Assembly (NCBI GenBank): GCA_000437395.1
Contig: FR898192.1
Location: 54,029 to 118,028, forward strand
Length of the DNA: 64,000 bases
Source of the DNA: Clostridium sp. CAG:288
Lineage (GTDB): Bacteria; Bacillota_I; Bacilli_A; RFN20; CAG-288
Reading direction: 5' to 3'
Shown: positions 1,342 through 46,866 of the stretch, piece by piece
Layout of the letters: every line of letters starts with the position of its first letter
Numbering within the stretch: position 1 is the stretch's first letter
Notes under the pieces: generated by a model
Told to the model about the DNA's origin: nothing
Seen by the model: the letters and a program-made list of their open reading frames with translations, nothing else
The model's database searches: none
Made by a program: the position numbers and the translations under genes

Positions 1342-4272
1342 ATGAAAAGAATATTTGGTGCAATTCTAATTCTTATAATTGTTGCTTTATTTATTTCTGT
1401 TCACGCTTATCAGCCACTTAATAATGTTCTTTCAAGTGGCATAGAAGTGATAAGAAAGTTTGTAGTCAACTCTTATGATAAGTTTGCAACCTTTTGCTAT
1501 GATGCTATAGGCAAACTTTCATCAAATCACTTTGGTTTGTCAATTGAAAATTGGGCTTTGGTAGGATATATAATTGTTCTTGTTTTATTCTTAATTGTTT
1601 ACTTTATATTATTTGGAATAATTGCTCATATTAGAAATAAAAGAATCATAAATAAAAAGAAAGCTGAAGGGGATTCAGATTACGAAGTTGACAAATTTCC
1701 AACTAAACGTCTCATATTTGCTTTTTTAATTATTGCTTCATCGGGATACTTATTCTTTGTTTTATCAAATCAACAAGTACATGATGCTTATATAGCTTTT
1801 ACTATTTCTGTTAGAAAATATTGTTTGATAACATATAACGCTATATCTAACACAGCTTATAAAATTGCTAATTACATTTTTAAAAACAACGCATCGAAAT
1901 TATCTCAAAGTATTTGGACGGTTATCTTTTCAAGCGTTGTAATGGTTTTGTTCTATGTCTTATATTTTGTCATCTTTGGCTTAATTGCTAAAGCACAAAA
2001 AAATAAGAAAAAGAAAACGGAAGAAAATTTCACTAAGACTAGAAGTAATATTCAAGAAATTAATAACGCTGAATTTATTTCTAAAGCTAAACAATTTAAT
2101 TGGCAAGATTATATTGGTGGTAGACCAATAAAGAGAGTCATTTTTGGAATAGTTTTGAGTATTATTCTTTTAGCTTTCTTAGCTTTGAGATTCTTTGATT
2201 ACTTTAATACAAGTGATTCTTATTCAATAGTATCTTTAGCTCCTGTATTTGATTTCTTCTCGCCGTTATTTTCAACTATGGATATTGTTGAAAATAGCAT
2301 TTTCGGTGGATTTAAAAATAATATAATTAGCAATAATTTAATAAATAATCAACCATTTAATTTAATGCAATTATTCGATTTTGTTTTTTGGATTGTTGTT
2401 TCAATAGTACTTGTAGTCATGCTAATTTTGATTTGTACTATCTTTGCACATATGTTTAGAAAGAAATATGCTATAAAGAGAGCTAAGAAAGCTGAATTAA
2501 AGTATTTAAATGAATTAAATTCTTTACCAAAAGAAGAAAGATTTTACGCTTCATCCAAATCAGGTGAACAGTTAGGTATTCCTACATCAAAAGTAGAAGG
2601 AGCTGACGTTGAAACTATTGCTAAAATATCAAATAAAAAACTTACTGGGGCAATGAGTGATGAAGTTAGTTCAGCTGATTATATAGACGATATTTCAGAA
2701 GGAGTTAGATATATCGGCATAGCTCAACCACAGGAAGATGATTCAATTACAATTCATGAAACACGTGAACCATTAGTTGAAGAACCGATGCCTGGTGAAG
2801 AAGATGTTTTAGATGTTGATAATAACACAGCAGATATTAGTGAATTAAATACAATTGATGATGATAGTGAAACTTCAACAGAACATATAGTTAACCTTTT
2901 CCAACCAGATATTTATGTTAATGTTGAAAACTGTGATATTAGCACTATTAGAACTGTTGAAGAACAAAATAATTCCGTTGATACAAACGATATATCAGAT
3001 GTTATTTTATTTGATAATGATGGATTTGCTTATTTTGAATCTGCAGGACCAAGATCTAGAAACTTTGAAGATAACAATAAAGAAATTGCAGATGAAATTC
3101 CTGAAACTTATGACTATGTAGAAGATAGAAACTTTGATAGTGGAAGATTAGTTGAAGACTTAGTTACTTCAAATGTTATTGTTGAACCATCATTTAGTAG
3201 AGTTGAAAACAATGACAAAAAAGAAAATGAAAAAGACGAAGTTCCAGAGTATTTACGTAAATTGGATTATAAAATCAAAGAAAATGATGATGATCTCAGA
3301 ATGATTGAATCTATAGAGCCTTCAAAAATTATTCCGGTCAACGATTGGCCAGATGAAGAATCATCTGAAATTGAAGATGCAGGATGTATTCATATTATTT
3401 TGGACAGCTTTGATGAATCTATTAAATACGAAAATAAAAACGTTGAAATCGCTCCTATTATTGAACAAGTATTAGACGAAAAAGTTGTAAATGAAAAGCA
3501 AGTTAAAGAGCCAGTAAAAGTAATTCCAAAAATGGCAGGTAATGTCAAACCTATGGCAGCACCAATACGACCAATAAGACCTATAAACAACGTTCCTAGA
3601 AACACAATTAAGCCTATTGCAATTAAACCAAAGGAAGAAAATACTCAAGAAGAAATAGCTTATGAAGATAAGCCTCAAATGTTTATTAATAAGCCTTTGC
3701 ATGAAATTAACGATAGGAGAAAGGATATTGCGCCAATAACTGTTGATACTAAGAAGAAATTTGATTTAAAAAAATTCTCATTTGGTACAAAGTATGATGG
3801 CAATTTAAGCTCTCAAGAGGCATTTGAAAAAGGAATATCTACTGTTGATGTAGTTGTTTCACCAGTCACAATTTCAAATGATGTGAATGATAAAACGCCT
3901 GAATGGATTAAAAAGAGACACGCTGAGAGCAATAAAGAAAACAGATATAGAAATATTAAAGAAATTGGAATTGACGAAAGCAAAGGCTTAAAAAAGCCAG
4001 TTGAAAAAGTTGAAAAGTTCACTTTAAGAAAATCTCATAAGAAATATGAAGAAAACGTTGAATCTTTAAAACTAGTTCAACCAAACACATCATTTAAAAA
4101 GCCTATTGAACCTATAAAGATTTCTAAAGTCGAACCTGAAAATAGAACTCAAGTAAATGAAGATATTAAAGCAACTGAGGTTAAGAAAGTTGCTTTGACT
4201 AAACACACTTCTAATACAAGTATTTCTAAACCAATCAAACCAATAATGCCTGTAAAGAAACCAAAGCATTAA
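1342..4272 (+). CDS. large membrane protein with triplicated TM module and long acidic/K-P-rich tail, function unknown
   Basis: ORF track gives 1276..4272. I moved the start to ATG 1342 (MKRIFGAILILII), which lies 8 nt after GAGG at 1330-1333. Three similar hydrophobic modules each end in a basic stretch (FGIIAHIRNKR, FGLIAKAQKNKKKK, CTIFAHMFRKKY). They are followed by ~600 aa of D/E-rich and KPIxP-type low-complexity sequence. Confidence 0.75.
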   Translation: MKRIFGAILILIIVALFISVHAYQPLNNVLSSGIEVIRKFVVNSYDKFATFCYDAIGKLSSNHFGLSIENWALVGYIIVLVLFLIVYFILFGIIAHIRNKRIINKKKAEGDSDYEVDKFPTKRLIFAFLIIASSGYLFFVLSNQQVHDAYIAFTISVRKYCLITYNAISNTAYKIANYIFKNNASKLSQSIWTVIFSSVVMVLFYVLYFVIFGLIAKAQKNKKKKTEENFTKTRSNIQEINNAEFISKAKQFNWQDYIGGRPIKRVIFGIVLSIILLAFLALRFFDYFNTSDSYSIVSLAPVFDFFSPLFSTMDIVENSIFGGFKNNIISNNLINNQPFNLMQLFDFVFWIVVSIVLVVMLILICTIFAHMFRKKYAIKRAKKAELKYLNELNSLPKEERFYASSKSGEQLGIPTSKVEGADVETIAKISNKKLTGAMSDEVSSADYIDDISEGVRYIGIAQPQEDDSITIHETREPLVEEPMPGEEDVLDVDNNTADISELNTIDDDSETSTEHIVNLFQPDIYVNVENCDISTIRTVEEQNNSVDTNDISDVILFDNDGFAYFESAGPRSRNFEDNNKEIADEIPETYDYVEDRNFDSGRLVEDLVTSNVIVEPSFSRVENNDKKENEKDEVPEYLRKLDYKIKENDDDLRMIESIEPSKIIPVNDWPDEESSEIEDAGCIHIILDSFDESIKYENKNVEIAPIIEQVLDEKVVNEKQVKEPVKVIPKMAGNVKPMAAPIRPIRPINNVPRNTIKPIAIKPKEENTQEEIAYEDKPQMFINKPLHEINDRRKDIAPITVDTKKKFDLKKFSFGTKYDGNLSSQEAFEKGISTVDVVVSPVTISNDVNDKTPEWIKKRHAESNKENRYRNIKEIGIDESKGLKKPVEKVEKFTLRKSHKKYEENVESLKLVQPNTSFKKPIEPIKISKVEPENRTQVNEDIKATEVKKVALTKHTSNTSISKPIKPIMPVKKPKH

Positions 4273-5355: not shown

Positions 5356-6473
5356 AGTTTTTTGAGGTGTATTGGTATTGGTTGATTTTTTTCACCAAGA
5401 ACTATTGGCTTGAGAGACTCTGAATCTTTTTTTGTTAAAATTTCTTTAGCTTCTTCAGGCAATAATTCGCTTGAAAGATCAAAATCGGCCATACTTTCTT
5501 CTAATTTAACCCAATCGACTTGTTGAGAGTAATATCTAGAATCTTCTGCTGAGAAAGTAATATTTTCTTTCAACTCTTTTATCTCTTTTTTATAAAAGTT
5601 ACGATATTTATTTTCAGCTCTTTTTCTGCCTTTAATATAAGCTTCCAGTTTTGCGTTTTCACCTTGATTAGAGAAATTTATTCCTTTTTCGGTAACAATA
5701 GCTTCATATAATAATTTTTCGAATGTTTTAACTGTTAAATCACTTCCGCTTGTATTGAATAAAGTTTCTGTAGCTTGAGGACCACCTGATAGCTTTGCAG
5801 ATTCATCTTCAAGCCATTTTAATGCTGGATTATAGAAGTATTTATAAAATTCTTCAGGTAATTCTGTATAATATGAACGTATGCTTTCACGATAGAATAA
5901 GCGGCTTTCTCCACTATCATTAATATCATCAATTTCTTTATACATAGACTTCATTGAACTTGCAAATATCATACCTTTAACAGCCGTGGCTTTATGAGCG
6001 ACTTCTTTAATAAGATTTTTATCTGCAGTTCCATAAAAAGAATATAAATTTAATAATTCATTTAAATCTTTGAATAAATATAAAGCCCACTCAAGAAGTT
6101 CATCGCAAATGTCTGTTATTTCATTTTTGTTAATATAAAGTTTTTTTCCAGTCCTTCTAAATATTTTTGGATTATTAATAATGTTAGTGTAAATGTAAGA
6201 TATATTATCTAAAACATCACCACTGACAAACTTATCTCCATAAAACAATTCTCTGGTATTATTTTTATTGCAAAAATAATATTTTGTCAATCTTTCAAGG
6301 CCGTCACAAAATGAGCTTTGGCTTCGCTCAAAATCGTTTTGATCACCTTCGAAGTGATGATTGCTAACTGGTGCAAAAGAGCTTAAAAAACGATATGCAC
6401 CATCATAAATGTACAAATACGAAAGAATTAAATATTGTAATTCTTGTTTTTTCAATGGACCTTCAGAACTCAT
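5331..6473 (-). CDS. hypothetical soluble protein (about 380 aa), no recognisable motif
   Basis: ORF track gives 5331..6509. The start is probably ATG 6473 (MSSEGPLKK), which is preceded by AAAGGGGAAG. I recognised no catalytic or binding motif. Confidence 0.7.
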   Translation of the reverse strand: MSSEGPLKKQELQYLILSYLYIYDGAYRFLSSFAPVSNHHFEGDQNDFERSQSSFCDGLERLTKYYFCNKNNTRELFYGDKFVSGDVLDNISYIYTNIINNPKIFRRTGKKLYINKNEITDICDELLEWALYLFKDLNELLNLYSFYGTADKNLIKEVAHKATAVKGMIFASSMKSMYKEIDDINDSGESRLFYRESIRSYYTELPEEFYKYFYNPALKWLEDESAKLSGGPQATETLFNTSGSDLTVKTFEKLLYEAIVTEKGINFSNQGENAKLEAYIKGRKRAENKYRNFYKKEIKELKENITFSAEDSRYYSQQVDWVKLEESMADFDLSSELLPEEAKEILTKKDSESLKPIVLGEKNQPIPIHLKKLCLKENRG

Positions 6474-6877: not shown

Positions 6878-6960
6878 TATATTTATCCCTTCACTATATA
6901 TAACCGTAAGATTTCATGTGTTTTTGCTCACTTTTTTAATAAATTTTAATTTCTTTACAA
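6878..6960 (+). repeat. R element copy 1 (about 80 nt, non-coding repeat)
   Basis: Contains TTCACTATATATAACCGTAAGATTTCATGTGTTTTTGCTCACTTTTTT...TTTCTTTACAA. It matches 7151-7246 directly and 29737-29822 and 30114-30186 in reverse complement. Confidence 0.85.
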
Positions 6961-7150: not shown

Positions 7151-7246
7151 TATATTTATCCCCTTTCACTATATATAACCGTAAGATTTCATATGTTTTT
7201 GCTCACTTTTTTGATAAATTTTAATTTCTTTACAAGTTGTTTATAA
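7151..7246 (+). repeat. R element copy 2
   Basis: Near-identical to copy 1 across TTCACTATATATAACCGTAAGATTTCAT(A/G)TGTTTTTGCTCACTTTTTT and TTTCTTTACAAGTTGTTTA. Confidence 0.85.
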
Positions 7247-7666
7247 TTTAGTGGCTAATTTATCCTCTCTATTTATTAACAAAGTTGATTTCAATTTTGT
7301 TCGAACTATATATAGAAATGTTTCGTTATAATATTTAGCAATACTGTGTAAAGAGATTCTTCTGATTGATTGTTCTCATAAATTTATCCATTATTAAAAT
7401 TTTTTATATAATTCAGCACAATTAACTAATGCTCTTGTTTTAACAAGAAATCTTCAAGAAATATACTTTCTATACCATCGATGCTTTCGACATCATATTT
7501 ATCTAATGTTACAATATATTTTGTATAGTTATCATCTATATTTTTCAAATTTTGAATTTGCTAATGTAAATATCGTAATGTTTTTTTCTTTGATTAAAGA
7601 TTCGAACCTTTTTTGTCGATCCTGGTTATTTTTGACGCTTACGATTCAACAGAGTCAATTTATGCA

Positions 7667-7712: not shown

Positions 7713-7801
7713 TGGTGCCCGGGGCGGGACTTGAACCCGCATGACCGATTAAAGTCGCAGGATTTTAAGTCCTGTGCGTCTACCGATTTCGCCACCCGGG
7801 C
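7713..7801 (-). tRNA. tRNA-Leu (anticodon UAA)
   Basis: Reverse complement is GCCCGGGTGGCGAAATCGGTAGACGCACAGGACTTAAAATCCTG...GGGTTCAAGTCCCGCCCCGGGCACCA. It has a long variable arm, anticodon loop CTTAAAA and an encoded CCA. Confidence 0.9.
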
Positions 7802-7810
7802 GAATAAAGA

Positions 7811-7886
7811 TGGTGTCCCGTATAAGATTCGAACTTATGACCCCTTGATTAAAAGTCAAGTGCTCTGCCAACTGAGCTAACGGGAC
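7811..7886 (-). tRNA. tRNA-Lys (anticodon UUU)
   Basis: Reverse complement is GTCCCGTTAGCTCAGTTGGCAGAGCACTTGACTTTTAATCAAGGGGTCATAAGTTCGAATCTTATACGGGACACCA. Anticodon loop is CTTTTAA. Confidence 0.9.
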
Positions 7887-7897
7887 AAATATATAGA

Positions 7898-7972
7898 TGG
7901 CTGGGGTACCTGGATTCGAACCAGGGCATATCAGAGTCAAAGTCTGATGCCTTACCGCTTGGCGATACCCCA
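7898..7972 (-). tRNA. tRNA-Gln (anticodon UUG)
   Basis: Reverse complement is TGGGGTATCGCCAAGCGGTAAGGCATCAGACTTTGACTCTGATATGCCCTGGTTCGAATCCAGGTACCCCAGCCA. Anticodon loop is CTTTGAC. Confidence 0.9.
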
Positions 7973-7979
7973 ATAAGAA

Positions 7980-8063
7980 TGGTGGAAGAAGATGGAGTCG
8001 AACCATCGAACCCGTAGGAACAGATTTACAGTCTGCCGCGTTTGGCCACTTCGCTATTCTTCC
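7980..8063 (-). tRNA. tRNA-Tyr (anticodon GUA)
   Basis: Reverse complement is GGAAGAATAGCGAAGTGGCCAAACGCGGCAGACTGTAAATCTGTTCCTACGGGTTCGATGGTTCGACTCCATCTTCTTCCACCA. It has a long variable arm. Confidence 0.9.
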
Positions 8064-8085
8064 ACAAAGCTTTTGCGCTAATAAA

Positions 8086-8161
8086 TGGTGGATGTTACAG
8101 GGATCGAACCTGTGACCTCCGCCGTGTAAAGGCGATGCTCTCCCGGCTGAGCTAAACATCC
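8086..8161 (-). tRNA. tRNA-Val (anticodon UAC)
   Basis: Reverse complement is GGATGTTTAGCTCAGCCGGGAGAGCATCGCCTTTACACGGCGGAGGTCACAGGTTCGATCCCTGTAACATCCACCA. Anticodon loop is TTTACAC. Confidence 0.9.
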
Positions 8162-29064: not shown

Positions 29065-29496
29065 TTATTCTTCGTCAGATTCTGAGTTTTCTAAATCGTC
29101 TTCTAAATCTTTAAGCTTATTTTTATCTATTTTTGTTGATTGTGGAATACTATTTTTAGATTGCTTTTTATTTTCATCAGATACTTCGACGACTTTGCCA
29201 TGATCGATTATTTTTCTAGTTACTTCCTTTTCATCGATTTTTTTGAAAAATGTTGTGTAGACAAATGTTGCAAACATAATTAATGAAAGAATGCTAAATA
29301 AAACTGTCATTAAGATATCAGCATTTTTTAAGAAAAAGTTGGTGCTATCTTTACCACCGAACAACGTTTTTCCACTTGCAATAGTGGAAATACATGCGAT
29401 TGTATAGCTAGAGATACATATTGTCATAATTAACATAATTACACAAATAATCCAGTTCTCAGCTTTAAATTTTTTGAATCTATCAAATAAGTTCAT
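29065..29496 (-). CDS. small membrane protein with acidic C-terminus, function unknown
   Basis: The start is probably ATG 29496 (MNLFDRF), downstream of ACGGAGT. Three hydrophobic segments. Confidence 0.6.
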   Translation of the reverse strand: MNLFDRFKKFKAENWIICVIMLIMTICISSYTIACISTIASGKTLFGGKDSTNFFLKNADILMTVLFSILSLIMFATFVYTTFFKKIDEKEVTRKIIDHGKVVEVSDENKKQSKNSIPQSTKIDKNKLKDLEDDLENSESDEE

Positions 29497-29581
29497 ATAT
29501 ACTCCGTTTAATTTTGAAATCACAATTAATTTCTTTAATTAGTATATCAAATATAAATCTAAATTAAATTGTTTTATAAAT

Positions 29582-29608
29582 AAAAAAGTCCTGGTTTACT
29601 ACGCCAGG
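29582..29608 (-). terminator. possible intrinsic terminator at the edge of the non-coding island
   Basis: CCTGG-N9-CCAGG. On the minus strand it is followed by ACUUUUUU. Confidence 0.4.
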
Positions 29609-29736
29609 CCTAAAAGTTTTCACTTTTTACTATTTATAATGTATTACATATATTTGCTGTGATCAATAAAAAACAAGGTTTATAGGAACGTAATACTATT
29701 ATAAAAAGACATATGTGACATTTTTAAACGCTTGAA

Positions 29737-29822
29737 TTGTAAACAACTTGTAAAGAAAATAAAAAAGTGAGCAAAACCATATAAAAACTTACGGTTATAT
29801 ATAGTGAAGGGAAAAATATAGC
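29737..29822 (-). repeat. R element copy 3 (inverted relative to copies 1 and 2)
   Basis: TGTAAACAACTTGTAAAGAAAATAAAAAAGTGAGCAAAACCATATAAAAACTTACGGTTATATATAGTGAAGGG is the reverse complement of the R1/R2 consensus. Confidence 0.85.
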
Positions 29823-30113
29823 TAAAAACTATTTAAATTTTGAAAAGATAACGTTTATCAAGGCATTTATAGTGAACGTTATTATTTAAGAAAAATATAA
29901 GATTGTCACATAGCTTTATTATTAACAAAAATAGGCAATAGAGCTTACATATCTTTTTAATATAAATTTATATGGAAATATTAGAATTGAAGCTTATACG
30001 CTATATAAATCGTTAATAATAAGAATTGGGTTACAATTGCTAATAAAATTATATAGTTTATTATCGGTTGATAATGTAGCCGATTAATGATTGACAATTT
30101 ATTGAACTTAAAA

Positions 30114-30186
30114 TGTAAACAACTTGTAAAGAAATAGAAAAAGCGAGCAAAAACATATGAAAACTTACGGTTATATATAGTGAAGT
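30114..30186 (-). repeat. R element copy 4 (inverted relative to copies 1 and 2)
   Basis: TGTAAACAACTTGTAAAGAAATAGAAAAAGCGAGCAAAAACATATGAAAACTTACGGTTATATATAGTGAAG. Confidence 0.85.
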
Positions 30187-30422
30187 GCATACTTTTAGCC
30201 AATTATGACTCGAAATTTTAAAATTAAGTTTGCAAATACAAAATATAATGTTAACGTTCATCAAAAATATGGACTATTATTCTTAAGTATATATTTCTTA
30301 AACGTTGTTATTGATTAATAAAAATATTAAAGATATAAACTTCTTATCTATTTATGATAGCTATTAACTTTTGTGTTCCTTAATAGATAAAAAGAAACAT
30401 ATTAAACGTAAGAGGTGATTAT

Positions 30423-30494
30423 AAAAAAGCCCTCATTGCTGAGGGTCTCCCTAATTCAATTAGAGATTGGTGATAACTCGTGCTATCAATTCTA
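30423..30494 (-). ncRNA. family-I structured sRNA candidate, copy A (short variant)
   Basis: Promoter TTGCTT (30524-30529) N17 TATAAT (30501-30506). The RNA is UGAUA-GCACGAGU-UAUCA, then ACCAAU, then UCUCUAAUU...AUUAGGGAGA, then terminator CCCUCA-GCAA-UGAGGG plus U6. Confidence 0.45.
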
Positions 30495-30578
30495 AAAACC
30501 ATTATATTTAAAAAATAATTATTAAGCAATAAAAATAATTAAATAAACAAAAAATATAAATTTTGAAAAAAATAATAT

Positions 30579-30651
30579 AAAAAAAGTAAGACTCGTGGGC
30601 AACGTACGCTATTATTAGCAACATACCTAAAAAGTTAAACTGTCTTACTTG
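30579..30651 (-). ncRNA. family-II structured sRNA candidate, copy 1
   Basis: Promoter TTTACA (30680-30685) N16 TATAAT (30658-30663). Outer helix is GUAAGAC/GUCUUAC followed by U7. Inner hairpin is GCUA-AUAA-UAGC, then GUACGU. Confidence 0.5.
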
Positions 30652-30720
30652 CTATTGATTATATCAAATAGTTAAAAAATGTAAATAGATAATTAAGGAA
30701 GGTAAAAAATAATATTAATG

Positions 30721-30817
30721 AAAAAAGGGGCTAAGTAGTTAACTTAGACACCCTTCTTTCTCACTAAGCATGGTTGGTCAAGTTAGTGACTGGTGATAAC
30801 TTAGTGTTATCGTAGCT
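30721..30817 (-). ncRNA. family-I structured sRNA candidate, copy B
   Basis: Promoter TTGACT (30848-30853) N18 TATAAT (30824-30829). The RNA is GAUAAC-ACUAA-GUUAUC, then ACCAGU, then UCACUAA-N15-UUAGUGA, then a terminator hairpin (30727-30753) plus U6. Confidence 0.55.
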
Positions 30818-31035
30818 GTAATTATTATATGCTTAGCAAATACAAACAGTCAATAAAAAATAAATGGTAAATAATAATCATTTAGGCTTTATCATTATAG
30901 AAGTAGCGTTATTTAAATTAAAAACCTAAATTAGATATTAAATTTTAATAGATTGTATGGCTGTCACATATCTTTATAAGATGATGAACATAAAGATAAC
31001 GCTATAGAAAAATAATTTAGTTAAAAATAATAAAC

Positions 31036-31103
31036 AAAAAAAGTAAGGATTCTGAGCACGTACGCTATTGCTAGCAACACACTTGGAATAGAATCCTTAC
31101 TTG
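31036..31103 (-). ncRNA. family-II structured sRNA candidate, copy 2
   Basis: Promoter TTTACA (31132-31137) N16 TAAAAT (31110-31115). Outer helix is GUAAGGAUUC/GAAUCCUUAC followed by U6-7. Inner hairpin is GCUA-GCAA-UAGC, then GUACGU. Confidence 0.5.
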
Positions 31104-31324
31104 CTATTAATTTTATCAAATGATTAAAAAATGTAAAGTGATTAAAGGCAATATGTTGGATAATTAAGAAATACTCAATTAAATAAGCTTAATATTAAAA
31201 ACAATAATTATGTCTAGTAAACAATTTTGCTTTTACAACTCAAATAATTATATAAGTGATAAAGAAATTAATTAGATGATATGCTATGCATCTAGTTATT
31301 ATTGTTATTTATTTTTAAGCAAAT

Positions 31325-31422
31325 AAAAAACGGGGCTGTCCTTTCGGTTTCAGTTACCCGCTTCTTTCACTAAGCATGTTTGAGTAAGTTAGTGACTGGT
31401 CTAGCTTCGTGCTAGATATTGT
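31325..31422 (-). ncRNA. family-I structured sRNA candidate, copy C
   Basis: Promoter TTGACT (31453-31458) N18 TATAAT (31429-31434). The RNA is UCUAGC-ACGAA-GCUAGA, then CCAGU, then UCACUAA-N15-UUAGUGA, then a terminator hairpin (31331-31360) plus U6. Confidence 0.55.
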
Positions 31423-31617
31423 ATTAGTATTATATATTCATCAAATACAAACAGTCAACAAAAATTAAATAATAAAGTTGTAAAACGTGTAGATAAGGTA
31501 AAGAAATACTTGTAAATAAATTATTCAATATTCGAATCTTTTTATCAAACCAGGTTGTTTTCGGTGCTTATAGTTCATTAGTTCGAACATACGGCAGAAA
31601 TCAAACTCCGTAAAAAT

Positions 31618-31649
31618 AAAAAAGTTCGACACAATTTACTGTATCGAAC
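31618..31649 (-). terminator. intrinsic terminator of the tRNA-Val/tRNA-Thr operon
   Basis: Minus-strand RNA GUUCGAUACA-GUAAAU-UGUGUCGAAC followed by U6. Confidence 0.8.
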
Positions 31650-31663
31650 TAATTCTTCAATAA

Positions 31664-31739
31664 TGGTGCCGCCTAAAGGAATCGAACCTTCAACCTACTG
31701 ATTACAAATCAGTTGCTCTGCCAGTTGAGCTAAAGCGGC
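31664..31739 (-). tRNA. tRNA-Thr (anticodon UGU)
   Basis: Reverse complement is GCCGCTTTAGCTCAACTGGCAGAGCAACTGATTTGTAATCAGTAGGTTGAAGGTTCGATTCCTTTAGGCGGCACCA. Anticodon loop is TTTGTAA. Confidence 0.9.
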
Positions 31740-31752
31740 ATGGGTTTGCTAA

Positions 31753-31828
31753 TGGTGGACGCTACAGGGATCGAACCTGTGACCTCTTCCGTGTGAAGGA
31801 AACGCTCTCCCTACTGAGCTAAGTGTCC
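31753..31828 (-). tRNA. tRNA-Val (anticodon CAC)
   Basis: Reverse complement is GGACACTTAGCTCAGTAGGGAGAGCGTTTCCTTCACACGGAAGAGGTCACAGGTTCGATCCCTGTAGCGTCCACCA. Anticodon loop is TTCACAC. There is one A-C mismatch in the acceptor stem. Confidence 0.8.
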
Positions 31829-32129
31829 GCGCAAGAGTTAATATATCAAAACATAAACAATAATGCAACATTTTTTTGAAAAAAATACAAAAATAGTTGA
31901 TGACTGCATATCTTGATTTAATTGTTTAAGCGATTTTAGGTTTTAACTTTAGTATTTAATAAATAATTATATCCATATTTTGTAATCAATTATATTTTTT
32001 ATTTAATGCTCAGTTCATGAAAGAAAAACGTTCAAATAATGCTTAAAACATAGCAAATGCATACAAAACGAGCATATAAGTTAAATTAATGTGCATATTT
32101 ACAATTTAAATGCGCAAAATATTGCATTT

Positions 32130-39304: not shown

Positions 39305-40060
39305 TTAGCTATTTGATTGAGTTTTATTTGATTCTTCTGAATTTATAACGACATTATTATCTATTGATTCAGAATCTGTATTTGTCTTTTCTTTTTTCTT
39401 TAATGTAACAATACTTCCAGAGAAATACTCTTTAAATCTCTTATCTGTTTTTAATAGATGGAAGATGACTCTATTAAATATAATTTCATAAAATGCGCAA
39501 ACAATTAATCCTTTTAAGAAATTAAATGGCAAATATATATAAGCAATTACGACTGCATAACCACCTTTTACGTTAATTCCAACACTTGTAAAATCATAGT
39601 TCCAAGCATCGATGAATGTCGCAGGTTTGCCTAAGATAAATGTTGGAGTAAAGAACAAGAAGTTCATTATTGTTAAAGCTACTGCAACAATTGAACAAGT
39701 AATTGCATAACTTGCAATTCTTCCTTTAATTCCTTTTTTGAATAAATGGAAAACTTTACTTGTTAAGAATATTCCTAAGCAATACATAAGTGAAGTAAAC
39801 AAGGCTGTAAGTTGACCTACAGCGATAGCTCCATTAGGCCCAAAAACAAGTATGTTAATTATAGTTTTTAATATTGCTATTGTTATAGCACCTTGAAACC
39901 CATATAAGGCATACCCAATTAAAATAACTGTATCGCTTGGCTCAAGTTCAAGCCATGGTGCTAATGGATACGGCATATATTTGCCTAATAACATCAATAC
40001 AATACCAAGAGCGCTTAGTACTGCTAAATTAGCAATTTTAACTACTGATTTATTTCTCAT
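39305..40060 (-). CDS. ribU: ECF-transporter S component, probable riboflavin transporter RibU
   Basis: Six-TM S-component-like protein directly downstream of an FMN riboswitch. The start is ATG 40060 (MRNKSVV), because the riboswitch terminator covers the upstream in-frame Mets of the 39305..40111 ORF. Confidence 0.75.
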   Translation of the reverse strand: MRNKSVVKIANLAVLSALGIVLMLLGKYMPYPLAPWLELEPSDTVILIGYALYGFQGAITIAILKTIINILVFGPNGAIAVGQLTALFTSLMYCLGIFLTSKVFHLFKKGIKGRIASYAITCSIVAVALTIMNFLFFTPTFILGKPATFIDAWNYDFTSVGINVKGGYAVVIAYIYLPFNFLKGLIVCAFYEIIFNRVIFHLLKTDKRFKEYFSGSIVTLKKKEKTNTDSESIDNNVVINSEESNKTQSNS

Positions 40061-40075
40061 AATAACTCTTTCCAT

Positions 40076-40242
40076 GAAAAAAGTTCCTAAAGATATATTC
40101 TTCAGGGACACAATTAAAAACGCAAAATTAGGTTCACTTCTTTCATCCAGCCTTTACTGTCGCCTTAGGAATTGCACCTAATCATGCTCAACTAGAGCTC
40201 GCGGGGTATACCGCCGAGTGGGAATTTCACCCAACCCTGAAG
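40076..40242 (-). promoter_or_regulatory. FMN riboswitch (RFN element) with terminator expression platform
   Basis: Minus strand reads CTTCAGGGTTGGGTGAAATTCCCACTCGGCGGTATACCCCGCGAGC...GATTAGGTGCAATTCCTAAGGCGACAGTAAAGGCTGGATGAAAGAAG, which matches the RFN core (aptamer 40137-40242). It is followed by hairpin GUCCCUGAAG/CUUUAGGAAC plus U6 (40077-40109). Confidence 0.9.
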
Positions 40243-40282
40243 TATAAATATTTTTACACAATACTTATGCTTTGTCAATAGG

Positions 40283-41613: not shown

Positions 41614-42200
41614 TTTTTATTTTTCCTTAGCCTTTTATTTCGATAGTAAACATCAAAAAGTAATCCAACTATGCATGCAAATAATGTTGATATAATTCCA
41701 CAGATAACAAAGTCGGCAGGATTTATCGCACCATATTGTTGCCTAATTGCAATTACGGATGTAGGAATTATTGTTACTCCAGCTGTGTTTAAAACTAAAA
41801 AAGTAACCATCGCATCACTTGCTACTCCTTCTTCTTCATCACTCAATAATTTGAGTCTTTTCATTGCTTTTAAACCACTAGGAGTTGCGGCAAAGCCTAA
41901 GCCTAACATATTTGCTGCTATGTTAGTCGATATTAATTCACGTGCTTCTTTATCTTTCATTTGAGGCATAATTAAATCTAATAAAGGTGTTAATAGTTTG
42001 CTTATAAACTGAATTGCTCCGCAGTCAGCTAATATATACATTATTCCGTTCCAAAACACTGCAGAAAAAACTAATGTACAAACAAGCTCTAAACCCTTTT
42101 GTGGCAATGATAAAATTATAGTTGCCATTGTATCGAATCTTTTTGTAATTATTCCGTATAAAAAAGAAATTAACAAAATACCTAACCATATTTTATTCAT
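41610..42200 (-). CDS. spmA: spore maturation protein A
   Basis: 196 aa Gate-domain membrane protein (MNKIWLGILLISF...). It lies between dacB and spmB, as in B. subtilis. Confidence 0.75.
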   Translation of the reverse strand: MNKIWLGILLISFLYGIITKRFDTMATIILSLPQKGLELVCTLVFSAVFWNGIMYILADCGAIQFISKLLTPLLDLIMPQMKDKEARELISTNIAANMLGLGFAATPSGLKAMKRLKLLSDEEEGVASDAMVTFLVLNTAGVTIIPTSVIAIRQQYGAINPADFVICGIISTLFACIVGLLFDVYYRNKRLRKNKK

Positions 42201-43191
42201 ATAAGTTTACCTTTATACGTTCTCCATCATCTGTAATATATTCCATATATAAAAGTTGACCAGAAGAAGAGAATTTATATAATTTAATTCCATTTTTAAA
42301 TTTTTCTATTGGAACAACAATTCCAATCCTCTTTTTACTTTCAATTTTATAATCGTATATTTGATTTATACCTGGCTTTAAGAATTCTATAAAAGCCAAT
42401 CTAGAAAAGTATTTTTCGTACATATTTTTATGAAATTCGAAGTCGTTTCCGCAATTTAATGTGCACATAGCTATTTTTAGGCCATTTTTAGTCGCTCCTG
42501 ATACAAAAGTTCTCTTGGCTTTATATGTATATCCTGTTTTTCCACCATCTGTGTATTCGTACATTTTTAACAATTTATTTTTGTTTATCCACGTGTTTAT
42601 ATGTTTGCAAGAATAAGACTGAGTTTTTGAAATTTTACTAAACCAAACATTTTCTAGTGCATAAGACATTAAAACAGCCATATCATAAGCAGTAGACAAG
42701 TTACCTATCTCGTCTATATCTAATCCACTTGCATTTGTAAATTTAGTATTTTTCATTCCAATTTCAGAAGCTTTAGAATTCATTTTTTTAACAAATCCAT
42801 CGATGGATCCACCAATATAGGTTGCGATTGTGTAAGCTGCATCATTTCCACTTCTCAACATTAAACCATAACACAAATCTAACAAGGATAACTTTTCATT
42901 TTCTTGAATATAAATGGAACTACCAATTTGCTTTGTTGCTTCATTAGGTGCTACTATAACATCAAATATTCTATTACTTTCTAAAGCGATAATGCATGTC
43001 ATTACTTTTGATATACTTGCAACTGATCTAACTTTATGTATATTTTTCCCTTCTAGTACTTCTAGATTATCTCTATTAATAATGACATAACATTCTGAAA
43101 AATATGTTTTGTTTGAATTATCTATTGTTTTAGTGTTTTTTAAAGTTGCTAAAGATAATAAGGATAAGAATATAATAAAAATTTTTTTCAA
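42193..43191 (-). CDS. dacB: D-alanyl-D-alanine carboxypeptidase (S11, DacB-like, sporulation-type context)
   Basis: SxxK (SISKVMT), SGN (LRSGNDAA) and KTG (GGKTGYT) motifs, plus a signal peptide. Upstream of spmAB. Confidence 0.85.
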   Translation of the reverse strand: MKKIFIIFLSLLSLATLKNTKTIDNSNKTYFSECYVIINRDNLEVLEGKNIHKVRSVASISKVMTCIIALESNRIFDVIVAPNEATKQIGSSIYIQENEKLSLLDLCYGLMLRSGNDAAYTIATYIGGSIDGFVKKMNSKASEIGMKNTKFTNASGLDIDEIGNLSTAYDMAVLMSYALENVWFSKISKTQSYSCKHINTWINKNKLLKMYEYTDGGKTGYTYKAKRTFVSGATKNGLKIAMCTLNCGNDFEFHKNMYEKYFSRLAFIEFLKPGINQIYDYKIESKKRIGIVVPIEKFKNGIKLYKFSSSGQLLYMEYITDDGERIKVNLYE

Positions 43192-43248
43192 AGTTACTCA
43201 CCTCATATAAGTAAATGAAAAAACGTCTTATATTAGAACAATAAGACG

Positions 43249-44067
43249 TTAGTTATTAGCTATAAATTTTTTAATTATTTCTTCAAATTCATCAGCTTTT
43301 TGAGGAGAGTTTAGTTTTATTTGAAAAGTTTGTCCATTTCTTTCATATGTGCTTTGAACGTTTTGGTAGAAAGATGATTTTTTGAATTCACCAGCTATTC
43401 TTTCAGCTTCTCTAACAGAAATGTCTTCGTCTTCAAATTTGTGCATCAATGTTATTTGTTGCTCTTTGGATAATCCTAATAGAACTCTAACTTGGGCATA
43501 TGATAAATGACCTTTTACTACTGAAGACTTTATTTCTTTTGGCAAAGATAATATTCGCATTAAGTTATTTACTTGACCATGACTTTGATTTGTAATTAAA
43601 CAAATATCTTTTTCGGTATAGCCATATTTTGTTATTAGAGTTTTAAATGCAGTGCCTTTTACAAATGCATTATCACCGTTTTGAATTTCATTTTGAAGAA
43701 TGTAAGCAAACAGTTCATCTTTTTCAACGTTTAAAATAATTGTTGGAACTTCTTTGATTTTTAATTTTTTGGCAATAAGGAATCTTTTTACTCCATTTAT
43801 TACATAGCGGTTTGTATTTTCGACAATAGCAAAAATAGGAAATAAAACACCGTTTTTTTCAATCGAGTAACAAAGTGGTGAGTTTGATATATCGTAATTT
43901 GATTCATCAAAAAGAGGGTGAATCTTTAATTCGGTTGTAGGAATTAAAGATGAACTTGAAAAGCGGACGTTTTTCTCAATTTCTTGAACTACTGAAGAAT
44001 CTTTATATTTTTCTAGTAATTCAGCAAGCGTTGGATTATTTTTCTTCTTTTCTTCTGACATATTCAA
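43249..44067 (-). CDS. parB: ParB/Spo0J-family partition protein (divergent arginine patch)
   Basis: ParB N-terminal domain and HTH (GYTEKDICLITNQSHGQVNNLMRIL). The canonical GERRxRA box reads GVKRFLIA. Downstream of parA. Confidence 0.75.
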   Translation of the reverse strand: MNMSEEKKKNNPTLAELLEKYKDSSVVQEIEKNVRFSSSSLIPTTELKIHPLFDESNYDISNSPLCYSIEKNGVLFPIFAIVENTNRYVINGVKRFLIAKKLKIKEVPTIILNVEKDELFAYILQNEIQNGDNAFVKGTAFKTLITKYGYTEKDICLITNQSHGQVNNLMRILSLPKEIKSSVVKGHLSYAQVRVLLGLSKEQQITLMHKFEDEDISVREAERIAGEFKKSSFYQNVQSTYERNGQTFQIKLNSPQKADEFEEIIKKFIANN

Positions 44068-44821
44068 TAACCTCTCTAGCTAAAGATGAATAAGCAATTG
44101 AACCTGCTGCTTTTGGCTTATAAAAATTAACTGGTTTTCCTAATGCTGAACATTCAGCGAGAGAAACATTTCTTGGAATTTGTGTTGCGAAAGTTTTTTC
44201 TTTGAAAGTTCCAGTAACTTCTGAAGTAATCATAGTTGATAACTTTGTTCTATTATCGTACATGGTCAATAAAAAGCCTAATATGTCTAATTGTGGATTA
44301 GTACTCATTCTGACATTGTTGATAGCTGCTAATATTTGAGCTACAGCTTCCATTGCAAAATATTCACATTGAACAGGAATTAAAACTGAATTTGCAGCTG
44401 TTAAAGCATTTAAAGACAAAAATCCAAGTGATGGTGGACAATCTATAATTATGTAATCATAATCGTTATTTATTTTAGTCAAATATTGCTTTAAAGTGTT
44501 AAGTCCAGAGGTGATCCCTAAAGATATTAATTTTCCTTCGGCGGCTGCTAAATCTAGATTAGCAGGCAAAATATCGACATATTTAATAACTGTTTTTATT
44601 ATTACATTTTTTATACTCTTTTCTCCAATGATTACATCGAAGATAGTCTTTTTTAAAATTGTTGGATCGATTCCTATACCTCTGGAGCAATTTCCTTGAG
44701 GGTCAAGATCGACAATCAATACTTTTTTTTGATACTTTGCTAAACAAGAAGAAAGGTTTATAGCAGTTGTTGTTTTACCTACTCCACCTTTTTGATTTGC
44801 TATAGCAATAATTTCACTCAT
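44036..44821 (-). CDS. parA: ParA/Soj chromosome-partitioning ATPase
   Basis: Deviant Walker A NQKGGVGKTTT, and Walker B IIIDCPPS. The start is probably ATG 44821 (MSEIIAIANQ). The ORF track starts at 44836. Confidence 0.9.
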   Translation of the reverse strand: MSEIIAIANQKGGVGKTTTAINLSSCLAKYQKKVLIVDLDPQGNCSRGIGIDPTILKKTIFDVIIGEKSIKNVIIKTVIKYVDILPANLDLAAAEGKLISLGITSGLNTLKQYLTKINNDYDYIIIDCPPSLGFLSLNALTAANSVLIPVQCEYFAMEAVAQILAAINNVRMSTNPQLDILGFLLTMYDNRTKLSTMITSEVTGTFKEKTFATQIPRNVSLAECSALGKPVNFYKPKAAGSIAYSSLAREVIEYVRRKEEK

Positions 44822-44994
44822 TAAAAAAGACCTCACAGTGTGCGAGTTAAAGTATACATTATTTAGGCTATAATCACAAGGTTATATAATGTAAATAAAT
44901 TAAATTATATTGTTATAATATAAAAATTAACGCATATAAAAAAACACGTGTATAAATTTGTTAAGTAATATTTATTTGAACACGTGTTTAGATT

Positions 44995-46866
44995 TTATTT
45001 TGTGTTGTATTTTTTTATGTGAAGAATTAAGTTGTTTATATCAGCAGGGTGAACATTTGTAATTCTTGATGCTTCACCGACAGTTTTTGGTTTGATTAGA
45101 TTAAGTTTTTCTCTTGCTTCGAGAGATATTCCATCGAGATGTAAGAAATCTAAATCGCTTGGAATTAATAATTCTTCTAATGACTTGATTTTTTGAGCTT
45201 CTTTAATTTCTAAATTGATATATCCTTCGTATTTGATATCTGTTTCTAATTTGAATGTTTGTCTATCAGATAAGTGTGGCAAAGAAGGCTCTGTATCTCT
45301 TAAACCATTATAGTCAATTCTTTGTCTTCTTAATAAAGAATCGAATGAAACGTTTGGATCTACATCTAGATAATCTTTACTTTTGACATACTCAACTACT
45401 TTTTCGTTCTTTCCTACGTGGATTTCTTTTAAAAGTTGTTTTGTGTCTTCTATTTCTTTGTGCTCTTTCAAATATGTATCAAATCTCTCTTGAGAATTTA
45501 ATCCAAGTTTATAACCATATTCCATTAATCTATCATCAGCGTTATCTGATCTAGTTAATAGTCTATACTCAGATCTAGAGGATAGTAATCTATAAGGCTC
45601 TGTCGTACCTTTTGTAACTAAGTCATCTATCATAATACCGATATATGCTTCATCTCTTCTTAGAATAAATGGCTTTTCGCCTTTAATATATAAAGAAGCG
45701 TTGATTGCAGCCATAAGTCCTAATGCTGCAGCTTCTTCATATCCTGATGTACCAATTATCTGACCGGCACCATATAATCCTTTATATTTTCTTAATTGAA
45801 GTGTCTCATCAAATTGTAAAGGCTTAATTGCATCGTATTCAATAGCGTAAGCATATTTTATAACTTCTGCATGTTCTAAACCAACAAGAGAATGAATCAT
45901 TTCATCTTGAACGTTTATAGGCATCGATGTAGAAAAGCCTTGAACATAAATGGATTCAAAGTAATTAGATTCTGGTTCTAAGAATAATTGATGTCTTGAT
46001 CTCTCAGAAAATCTCACTACTTTATCTTCTATAGATGGACAATATCTTGGGCCAACACCTTTAACAACTCCACCATACATAGCAGATTCATTTAAATGAG
46101 CTCTAATAATCTCATGTGTTTTTTCGTTAGTATAAGTTAAGTAACAAGGTACTTGATCTTTTAAAGGCTTGAATTCTTTAGTGTCAAAGGAAAAAGCTAG
46201 TTGTCCATCCATACCATATTGAGGCTCTAGTTTTGAGTAATCTATTGATGAATGAACAATTCTTGGAGGGGTACCAGTTTTAAGTCTAAATAGTTCAATT
46301 CCATGCTCTCTTAATGAATCAGATAGACCATGTGCAGCATTTTCTCCGTCTGGTCCACCGCTTGTAACGTTGTGTCCACGCATTATTGTGCTATCAAGAT
46401 GAGTTCCAGTTGTTAATATAACAGCCTTAGATTTTACTATTTCGCCTGTTTTTAATTTTACGCCGACAATTCTATCGTCTTCAGTAATAATTTCTGTAAC
46501 TTCCTTTTCAACAATTTCTAAATTAGGAGTATTTTGTAATAAATTTTGAACATATGCTGGATATGTTTTTTTATCTTCTTGGGCACGTAGCGATCTAACT
46601 CCAGGTCCTTTTGACATGTTTAAAATTTTAATTTGCAAGTAATTAGCATCAGCTGCTTTGCCCATTATTCCGCCAAGAGCATCAATTTCTCTGACGACTA
46701 TGCCTTTAGCACTGCCACCAATATGTGGGTTGCATGGCATGTTAGCAATCATTTTAATATTTAGACATAGTAATAAAGTGTCCATTCCTAAAGTAGCTGC
46801 AGCATGTGCAGCTTCACTTCCAGCGTGTCCACCACCTACAACGATTATATCGTATGATTCTTTCAT
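44995..46866 (-). CDS. mnmG: tRNA uridine-5-carboxymethylaminomethyl modification enzyme MnmG (GidA)
   Basis: FAD motif VVGGGHAGSEAA, GPRYCPSIEDK, 623 aa. Confidence 0.93.
   Translation of the reverse strand: MKESYDIIVVGGGHAGSEAAHAAATLGMDTLLLCLNIKMIANMPCNPHIGGSAKGIVVREIDALGGIMGKAADANYLQIKILNMSKGPGVRSLRAQEDKKTYPAYVQNLLQNTPNLEIVEKEVTEIITEDDRIVGVKLKTGEIVKSKAVILTTGTHLDSTIMRGHNVTSGGPDGENAAHGLSDSLREHGIELFRLKTGTPPRIVHSSIDYSKLEPQYGMDGQLAFSFDTKEFKPLKDQVPCYLTYTNEKTHEIIRAHLNESAMYGGVVKGVGPRYCPSIEDKVVRFSERSRHQLFLEPESNYFESIYVQGFSTSMPINVQDEMIHSLVGLEHAEVIKYAYAIEYDAIKPLQFDETLQLRKYKGLYGAGQIIGTSGYEEAAALGLMAAINASLYIKGEKPFILRRDEAYIGIMIDDLVTKGTTEPYRLLSSRSEYRLLTRSDNADDRLMEYGYKLGLNSQERFDTYLKEHKEIEDTKQLLKEIHVGKNEKVVEYVKSKDYLDVDPNVSFDSLLRRQRIDYNGLRDTEPSLPHLSDRQTFKLETDIKYEGYINLEIKEAQKIKSLEELLIPSDLDFLHLDGISLEAREKLNLIKPKTVGEASRITNVHPADINNLILHIKKYNTK

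Follow-up and report, generated by a model that had tools for sequence, protein, structure and literature searches.

An alternating array of small-RNA genes beside a tRNA-Thr gene, probably left behind by decayed integrative mobilizable elements

RNA-OUT of IS10/Tn10 is an antisense RNA to the IS10 transposase mRNA and is known for multicopy inhibition, in which extra copies repress the recombinase. The immunity RNAs of P4-type satellites and of the phages P1 and P7 (CI RNA, C4 RNA) are small structured RNAs of integrated elements; they are processed from leaders, act by premature termination at complementary sites, and their alleles set the specificity of immunity. Streptococcal ICE, integrative mobilizable elements (IMEs) and CIME accrete in tandem at tRNA genes, where serial integration, decay and recombination leave a mosaic beside the tRNA. 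Sets of several homologous sRNA genes with their own promoters and terminators, some of them in tandem, are represented by Listeria LhrC1-5 and Vibrio Qrr1-5, each a single family of host regulators whose seeds and targets are known (Qrr: PMC3730234). Finally, the sgm-sRNA of Salmonella Genomic Island 1 maps between mpsA and oriT. It arises by processing of a longer primary transcript, of which it forms the 3' end, and it is needed for the life cycle of its own element, being required for transfer (PMC9299015).

Here we describe an array of five small-RNA genes in the window, that is, the whole 64,000-nt stretch of Clostridium sp. CAG:288 DNA that was analysed. Its likeness to LhrC and Qrr is limited to copy number: the array interleaves two unrelated families, and its units appear to descend from mobile elements. 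The nearest functional analogue is RNA-OUT, with which the units would share a short, stable stem-loop RNA, a strong promoter facing a mobile-element recombinase gene, and inhibition in trans by extra copies, which for the units is a prediction. They differ from RNA-OUT in that the recombinase is the tyrosine integrase of an IME and in that the inferred pairing would fall in the leader, some 45-150 nt before the start codon, rather than on the ribosome-binding site; RNA-OUT has no sequence or Rfam similarity to the units. The P4/P1/P7 immunity RNAs would be matched by alleles found in one hairpin of family I (hairpin 1), but the units have no Rfam match, the C4 family included, and a search of the IMEs for target repeats was negative. 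As in streptococcal accretion, the units point to elements that integrated one after another at a single tRNA 3' end and then decayed and recombined; unlike there, the survivor is the small-RNA gene of each element, and internal att repeats are lacking from the window. The nearest analogue in element type is sgm-sRNA, likewise an IME-encoded small RNA in a recombinase/mobilization module, which belongs, however, to an unrelated gammaproteobacterial element family and is unrelated in sequence (PMC9299015). Judged from sequence, the array is best read as akin to mobile-element antisense RNAs, an already known kind.

The array lies on the minus strand at 30423-31422 and comprises five promoter-hairpin-terminator units, three of family I and two of family II, which follow one another from 31458 to 30423 in the order I_C, II_b, I_B, II_a, I_A. 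A first-pass annotation had described five self-contained minus-strand units of two structural families at these positions, and sequence, promoter scan, folding and repeats agree with it; the promoters it had proposed are present in all five units. I_C (31325-31458; promoter 31458-31429, RNA about 31422-31325) carries the promoter TTGACT-N18-TATAAT and an RNA composed of hairpin 1 (UCUAGC/GCUAGA), CCAG, hairpin 2 (UCACUAAC/GCUUAGUGA) and the terminator. The promoter of I_B (30721-30853; promoter 30853-30824, RNA about 30817-30721) is also TTGACT-N18-TATAAT, and its hairpin 1 reads GAUAAC/GUUAUC in the window and UCUGGC/GCCAGA in other strains. I_A (30423-30529; promoter 30529-30501, RNA about 30494-30423) is a shortened variant with hairpin 2 formed by UCUCUAAUU/AUUAGGGAGA and a terminator located by scan; its promoter, TTGCTT-N17-TATAAT, is missing from the list of the consensus promoter scan that returned the other four because its weak -35 box matches the consensus at only three of six positions. 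In family II, II_b (31036-31137; promoter 31137-31110, RNA about 31106-31036) is preceded by TTTACA-N16-TAAAAT and has the outer helix GUAAGGAUUC/GAAUCCUUAC around the inner hairpin GCUA-GCAA-UAGC, and II_a (30579-30685; promoter 30685-30658, RNA about 30654-30579) is preceded by TTTACA-N16-TATAAT and has the outer helix GUAAGAC/GUCUUAC. Both family II promoters have a TG 5' of the -10 box, and the two units scored 85 (II_b) and 90 bits (II_a) in cmsearch.

The -10 box matches the consensus at five or six of six positions in every unit, and RNAfold returned the hairpins described, followed by U6-7, for all five. Fold z-scores against shuffled sequences were -3.65 for I_A, -5.77 for I_B, -3.38 for I_C and -4.27 for II_b, with a weak value of -1.79 for II_a, and the division into two families is borne out by a repeat search (repeat families D2, D3, D4, D8 and D10). 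A family III repeat, considered as a further sRNA, was rejected as it gave no fold signal on either strand. Open reading frames between 30.4 and 31.5 kb reach only 32-38 codons, cross promoters and terminators and differ between copies, on which grounds a reading as small ORFs or as a type I toxin-antitoxin system was also rejected. Rfam 15, whose families include RNA-OUT, the C4 antisense RNA and Gram-positive sRNAs, was searched at gathering thresholds over the window and at E<=10 over 29300-31900; it returned only two tRNAs and matched no unit, in keeping with the earlier statement that neither fold could be assigned to a known RNA family, and an Rfam search of the IME-borne units in L033, L047, L053 and L066 gave nothing. 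The array is thus a real feature, and it represents two small-RNA families that Rfam lacks; a third candidate is described below. Scanning a genome collection, apparently without the window's own genome, with a degenerate family I pattern yielded chance hits and a Streptococcus coding motif only; no copy of family I or II was present in the viral_contigs, phages and plasmids collections, and a literature sequence search with the conserved cores found nothing relevant. The gene order of the window does not agree with that of Clostridium perfringens, in which CPE2524 is metS (PMC2706048), cpe2521 neighbours yabE (PMC1084345) and CPE2532/2533 are spmB/spmA, and an assignment of the locus to the SR1-SR93 transcripts listed for that species (Low et al. 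2016; PMC4877802, Table S6) was rejected.

Across 40 further array loci the order seen most often is that of the window (tRNA-Thr, I, II, I, II, I), and variants have three units, or six units together with an integrase, giving a copy number of 3 to 6. About 30 of 36 strains keep intact orphan units, without any integrase gene (int) in cis. Compensatory change in the helices, proposed initially from the copies in the array itself, is borne out in these loci by stem variants that are fully paired. Five stems were recorded for hairpin 1 of family I, namely UCUAGC/GCUAGA, UCUGGC/GCCAGA, UUUGGC/GCCAGA, GAUAAC/GUUAUC and UGAUAGC/GUUAUCA, with four of six positions changed on both sides and none broken. 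Three paired versions of the family II outer helix were seen (GUAAGAC/GUCUUAC, GUAAGGAUUC/GAAUCCUUAC and AAGGCGG/CUGCCUU), and over eight distinct family II sequences 98.3% of the cells are paired, against 20-57% in a control in which the partners were slid by one to three columns. On this comparison of sequences, the unit structures are evidently maintained through double changes in the stems.

A 15-nt core, next to a varying stem, is the same in B- and C-type family I copies and differs at three positions in the A type, and the segment ACCAGUCACUAACUU is invariant in B- and C-type copies. The invariance claimed at the outset for UAGCGUACGU in family II holds in all copies extracted from this array or from beside an integrase, an invariance that partly reflects the search, as these copies were chosen by a match to TAGCGTACG; it does not extend to a diverged copy elsewhere (L047:2938-3012). 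Nucleotide diversity (pi) is highest in I_B (0.104) and II_a (0.059), compared with 0.004 in I_A, 0.003 in II_b and about 0.01 in the spacers. This uneven diversity along the array indicates allelic replacement of some units, and recombination between units is evident from the three-unit variants and from hybrid alleles of family II.

The array is placed just downstream of tRNA-Thr(UGU) (31664-31739, minus strand), the second gene of a pair that begins with tRNA-Val(CAC) (31753-31828, minus strand), both identified by Rfam; a terminator on the same strand (31623-31650, a 12-bp stem followed by a T run) stands between the tRNAs and the array. The last 11 nt of tRNA-Thr, AGGCGGCACCA (31664-31674), are the attachment core of an integrative element. 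At the other end, the first core gene past this integration hotspot encodes a 143-aa membrane protein (29065-29496, minus strand) and is matched in more than a thousand assembly blocks; among the matches listed, all loci are metagenome assemblies, with sample names that indicate human gut studies. The related sequences used throughout this work are metagenome or read-archive assemblies.

Three loci (L001, L003, L055) carry a 1484-bp insertion between tRNA-Thr and I_C that is flanked by an 11-bp direct repeat of AGGCGGCACCA and encloses the gene for a 358-aa tyrosine integrase together with a unit of family I; the left junction seen in L001 recurs in L033, L053 and L066. In L033, from a related lineage whose neighbouring protein is 87% identical, one element replaces the interval matching window positions 29632-31664 and occupies all the space from tRNA-Thr to the 143-aa gene, with no array. 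Its genes are arranged from tRNA-Thr as a 179-aa methyltransferase-like gene, int, a family I unit, a 144-aa gene, a Rep_trans gene (436 aa), a 462-aa gene and an 83-aa gene. We assign these elements to the IMEs on the basis of a tyrosine integrase next to a tRNA 3' end, repeats at both junctions (in L001) and a Rep_trans gene, which was found in L033, L052, L066, L069, L070 and L072. They encode a tyrosine integrase, matching Pfam PF00589/PF14659, together with a Rep_trans/MobT-type protein. In the window itself the IME is present as remnants only, and a search for degenerate att repeats inside the array found none.

Within these elements, some intact and others partly decayed, the units occupy a fixed slot. 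Family I adjoins int in L001, L003, L004, L010, L033, L071 and L072, in L004 and L010 with int directly against a unit of the I_B type. Family II takes this position in L052 and L053, two loci recovered by scanning metagenomes for the core of family II, and there a 118/121-aa gene and then Rep_trans come next. The integrases that adjoin family I share 95-97% identity with those that adjoin family II. In L066, a more distant but syntenic species whose integrase is 51% identical, the slot holds a third unit, unrelated in sequence and resembling family I in layout, with the promoter TTGACT-N17-TATAAT, an RNA of ~75 nt with two hairpins and a terminator, and a fold z-score of -4.4. All three unit types are divergent from int and convergent with the upstream operon of rep and a gene for a small protein, at whose 3' end, not in whose leader, they sit, and the distance from the -35 box to the int ribosome-binding site is 6 nt for family I, 0 nt for family II and 2 nt for the L066 unit. 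A consensus-like int promoter between unit and int was sought and not found. Unit-less elements also exist (L065, L069, L070), in which int follows 10-46 nt behind the upstream gene; one of these, L070, combines a truncated small ORF with an integrase of 97% identity, so the unit is dispensable for the element. Nor is family II tied to int, since L047 has two family II-like units that neighbour a lipoprotein gene, and no int. L054, in which a family II unit seemed to stand inverted beside a prophage, was discarded, as the contig has low coverage and is a chimera with a Lactococcus 936-type phage.

The orphan units of the window are accompanied by traces of the genes that flank their IME-borne counterparts. 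The 144-aa gene of the IME, which in intact elements runs towards the family I unit in convergent orientation, is represented by a decayed 3' end after I_C (31240-31324, plus strand; blastn to L001 and L033, and alignment) and by a second after I_A (about 30345-30422, plus strand; alignment). After II_b lies a decayed 3' end of the 118/121-aa gene (30965-31037, plus strand; collinear tblastn and alignment), which reads HISL*DDEHKDNAIEK..NLVKNNKQ against the intact HMSSEDDDYVDRIIEKRINYAKNNKK and contains an internal stop codon; the tblastn hits came from a low-stringency search with E values of 0.047 and 1.6, and the argument rests on their position, not their score. The trace of an IME gene at II_a is weak and I_B has no recognisable remnant, so that four of the five units, one of them weakly, keep flanking IME gene remnants. 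A search for int remnants beside the orphan units gave nothing significant. Orphan copies share 87-98% identity with IME-borne ones over the RNA body and 53-80% over the promoter-side and downstream flanks; for I_C and the copy in the L001 element the values are 98% and 67-70%. The higher identity of the RNA bodies could stem from gene conversion, not from selection.

The presence of IME gene remnants beside the orphans argues for descent from the element to the chromosome. The array, anatomy included, is therefore very probably a set of orphaned IME small-RNA genes left by element decay and by recombination between units. The alternation of the families had originally been attributed to duplication of a cassette of one unit of each. 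Such a simple duplication fails to explain the array, as the spacers from I to II differ (183 and 31 nt), and it is also at odds with the finding that I_C, I_A and II_b, and weakly II_a, each have their own flanking IME gene remnant.

How a unit might act on the neighbouring int can be proposed from the geometry of the slot. As there is no room for an int promoter between unit and int, and as int is fused to the upstream operon in the unit-less sister elements, the int mRNA would either cross the small gene head-on or start inside its promoter. The near-consensus promoter of the small RNA would fire toward the int transcript, and its terminator would insulate int from the rep operon. Being fully complementary, the RNA could pair with the int transcript, and antisense pairing together with transcriptional interference would hold int down; low int expression would in turn limit integration and excision, comparable to the action of RNA-OUT on the IS10 transposase. 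Three unrelated sequences in a single position are consistent with a function resting on location and cis-complementarity rather than on a trans seed common to all. Alternatively, an int promoter overlapping the small-RNA promoter may lead to promoter competition without any RNA pairing. We hold this antisense/insulator mechanism tentatively, at slightly less than an even chance, and regard the combination of origin, anatomy and mechanism, taken together, as somewhat favoured.

The orphans have no int in cis and, if functional, would act in trans, either against the int leader of allele-matched IMEs, whether resident or incoming, or on host targets; a trans or host function fits their retention without int at least as well. 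RNAduplex predictions for family I against its IME were no better than those for shuffled sequences, and exact complementarity of at least 12 nt to IME mRNAs was absent, with 9-11-mers at chance level only. In its most far-reaching form, a trans function would make the array a chromosomal immunity record, in which orphan antisense RNAs repress the integrase of matching incoming or resident IMEs, and families I and II and the hairpin 1 alleles are specificity determinants diversifying in an arms race between element and host. We consider this quite unlikely, and the interest of the array would be higher if it were true.

A more conventional reading, implicit in the first-pass annotation, is that the units are ordinary sibling sRNAs of the host, controlling its mRNAs through base pairing in trans, with ACCAGUCACUAACUU or the loop of hairpin 2 as candidate seeds in family I and the conserved core in family II, and that the IME carries or has captured them as moron-like cargo. 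Such sRNAs would be expected to have their own promoters and terminators, as every unit does, and to persist as orphans, as they do in most strains; the 15-nt core fixed in B- and C-type family I copies next to a varying stem, the family II-like units of L047 without int and the absence of the unit from some IMEs can be cited in the same sense. We nevertheless find this rather unlikely, because both families and a third lie in a fixed slot beside the int of elements that insert at tRNA-Thr. Three unrelated RNAs in exactly one slot, at the int ribosome-binding site, point to a role that depends on position and not on sequence, and the IME coding remnants by the orphans speak for descent from IME to chromosome, not the reverse; the lack of 12-nt or longer complementarity to IME mRNAs also counts against pairing of this kind.

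If the units came from IMEs, they might still be functionless fossils, the slowest-decaying or most recently homogenised parts of dead elements, kept alike by gene conversion with incoming ones. They do lie in an integration hotspot rich in remnants and vary in number from three to six, and the excess of pi in I_B and II_a over the spacers is what allelic replacement by recombination would produce. However, all five retain the -10 box, the stems and the U-tract while neighbouring coding remnants have acquired stops and deletions, the stem variants are all fully paired, and I_A and II_b are almost invariant, which makes the fossil reading unlikely. It is very improbable that the units work as DNA, either as arm or core sites of the integrase or as a transfer or replication origin for the Rep_trans protein. 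This would account for their position next to int in a Rep_trans-encoding element and for the inner hairpin of family II being an invariant palindrome (GCTA-NNAA-TAGC), which we take to resemble the pT181 nick hairpin. A protein-binding site would not, however, tolerate stems that co-vary to arbitrary sequences, and it would not call for a correctly spaced promoter on the 5' side and a U-tract terminator on the 3' side in constant orientation; the units moreover sit at the 3' end of the rep operon and not in its leader, and the array is without an att-like repeat.

Read as orphaned small-RNA genes of IMEs, the five units add two, probably three, undescribed small-RNA families that are tied to a fixed position by the int of tRNA-targeting mobilizable elements in gut Clostridia, and they offer a testable model for integrase silencing in such elements. 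For genome scans they counsel caution, as a tidy tandem array of sRNA genes beside a tRNA may be the remnant field of an integration hotspot rather than the product of gene duplication. Element decay that spares the small-RNA gene would be a route by which regulators of mobile elements become multi-copy chromosomal sRNA genes.

Units related to the array also occur away from any integrase. On an unrelated 41-kb gut contig (L047), a lipoprotein gene is flanked by two family II-like units on the minus strand, at 3621-3689 (66 bits) and at 2938-3012 (47 bits, with the diverged core GCGUGUAUACGU), each with its own promoter and its own terminator, and no integrase was present nearby. In another assembly (L054:3725-3800), the segment enclosed by the 10-bp outer-helix arms of a family II unit lies in inverted orientation; this contig is chimeric, being joined to a Lactococcus 936-type phage, and the inversion is therefore probably an assembly artefact.

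The integrative mobilizable element of a related, syntenic species (L066) encodes a third integrase-proximal small unit (5875-5995, minus strand), which shares the hairpin-ACC-hairpin-terminator layout of family I, is unrelated to it in sequence, and had no match in an Rfam search. Here and in three further loci, the interval between the Rep_trans gene and the small-RNA unit holds a gene for a small basic protein (L033:4229-4663, L052:1135-1500, L053:3953-4309 and L066:5397-5876). These proteins are 118-159 aa long, and all but one of the four begin with MWY. Searches of them against Pfam and PHROG returned no matches; given their position, they may be an excisionase or a relaxase accessory factor.

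Elsewhere in the window, an FMN riboswitch (40131-40248, minus strand, 94.5 bits) precedes an ECF-type transporter gene (39305-40111). Downstream of a suf operon, mnmG is followed by parA-like and parB/noc-like genes and next by dacB and two ORFs of spmA/spmB-like size (42193-46866, minus strand), an unusual location for origin-region-type genes.

A third type of repeat, approximately 94 nt long and distinct from both families, was observed in the window. Two copies lie just past the array (29716-29809 and 30092-30185, minus strand) and two adjoin the other tRNA cluster at 7713-8161 (6889-6938 and 7165-7248, plus strand). The copies are 84-95% identical and contain a direct repeat, TTTACA-N5-TTTACA; a fold signal was found on neither strand, and the repeat was not found in the mobilizable elements examined. 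Its copies may serve to bind a protein, or they may be a further remnant of the hotspot.

Upstream of the 143-aa membrane-protein gene, a candidate further short transcript (29583-29700, minus strand) has a TTAAAA-N18-TATAAT promoter (29727-29698) and, at approximately 29610-29583, a hairpin (GGCCUGGCG..CCAGGAC) and then a U run. This predicted terminator is kept in the L033 lineage, which carries the mobilizable element and no array, and its conservation there places it in the core genome.

Finally, in some strains the tRNA-Thr 3′ end also carries a separate prophage-like insertion, with HTH repressor-like and structural genes (L010:1-7283, L042:1-1601 and L064:1-1602). Thus, this attachment site is a multi-element hotspot.
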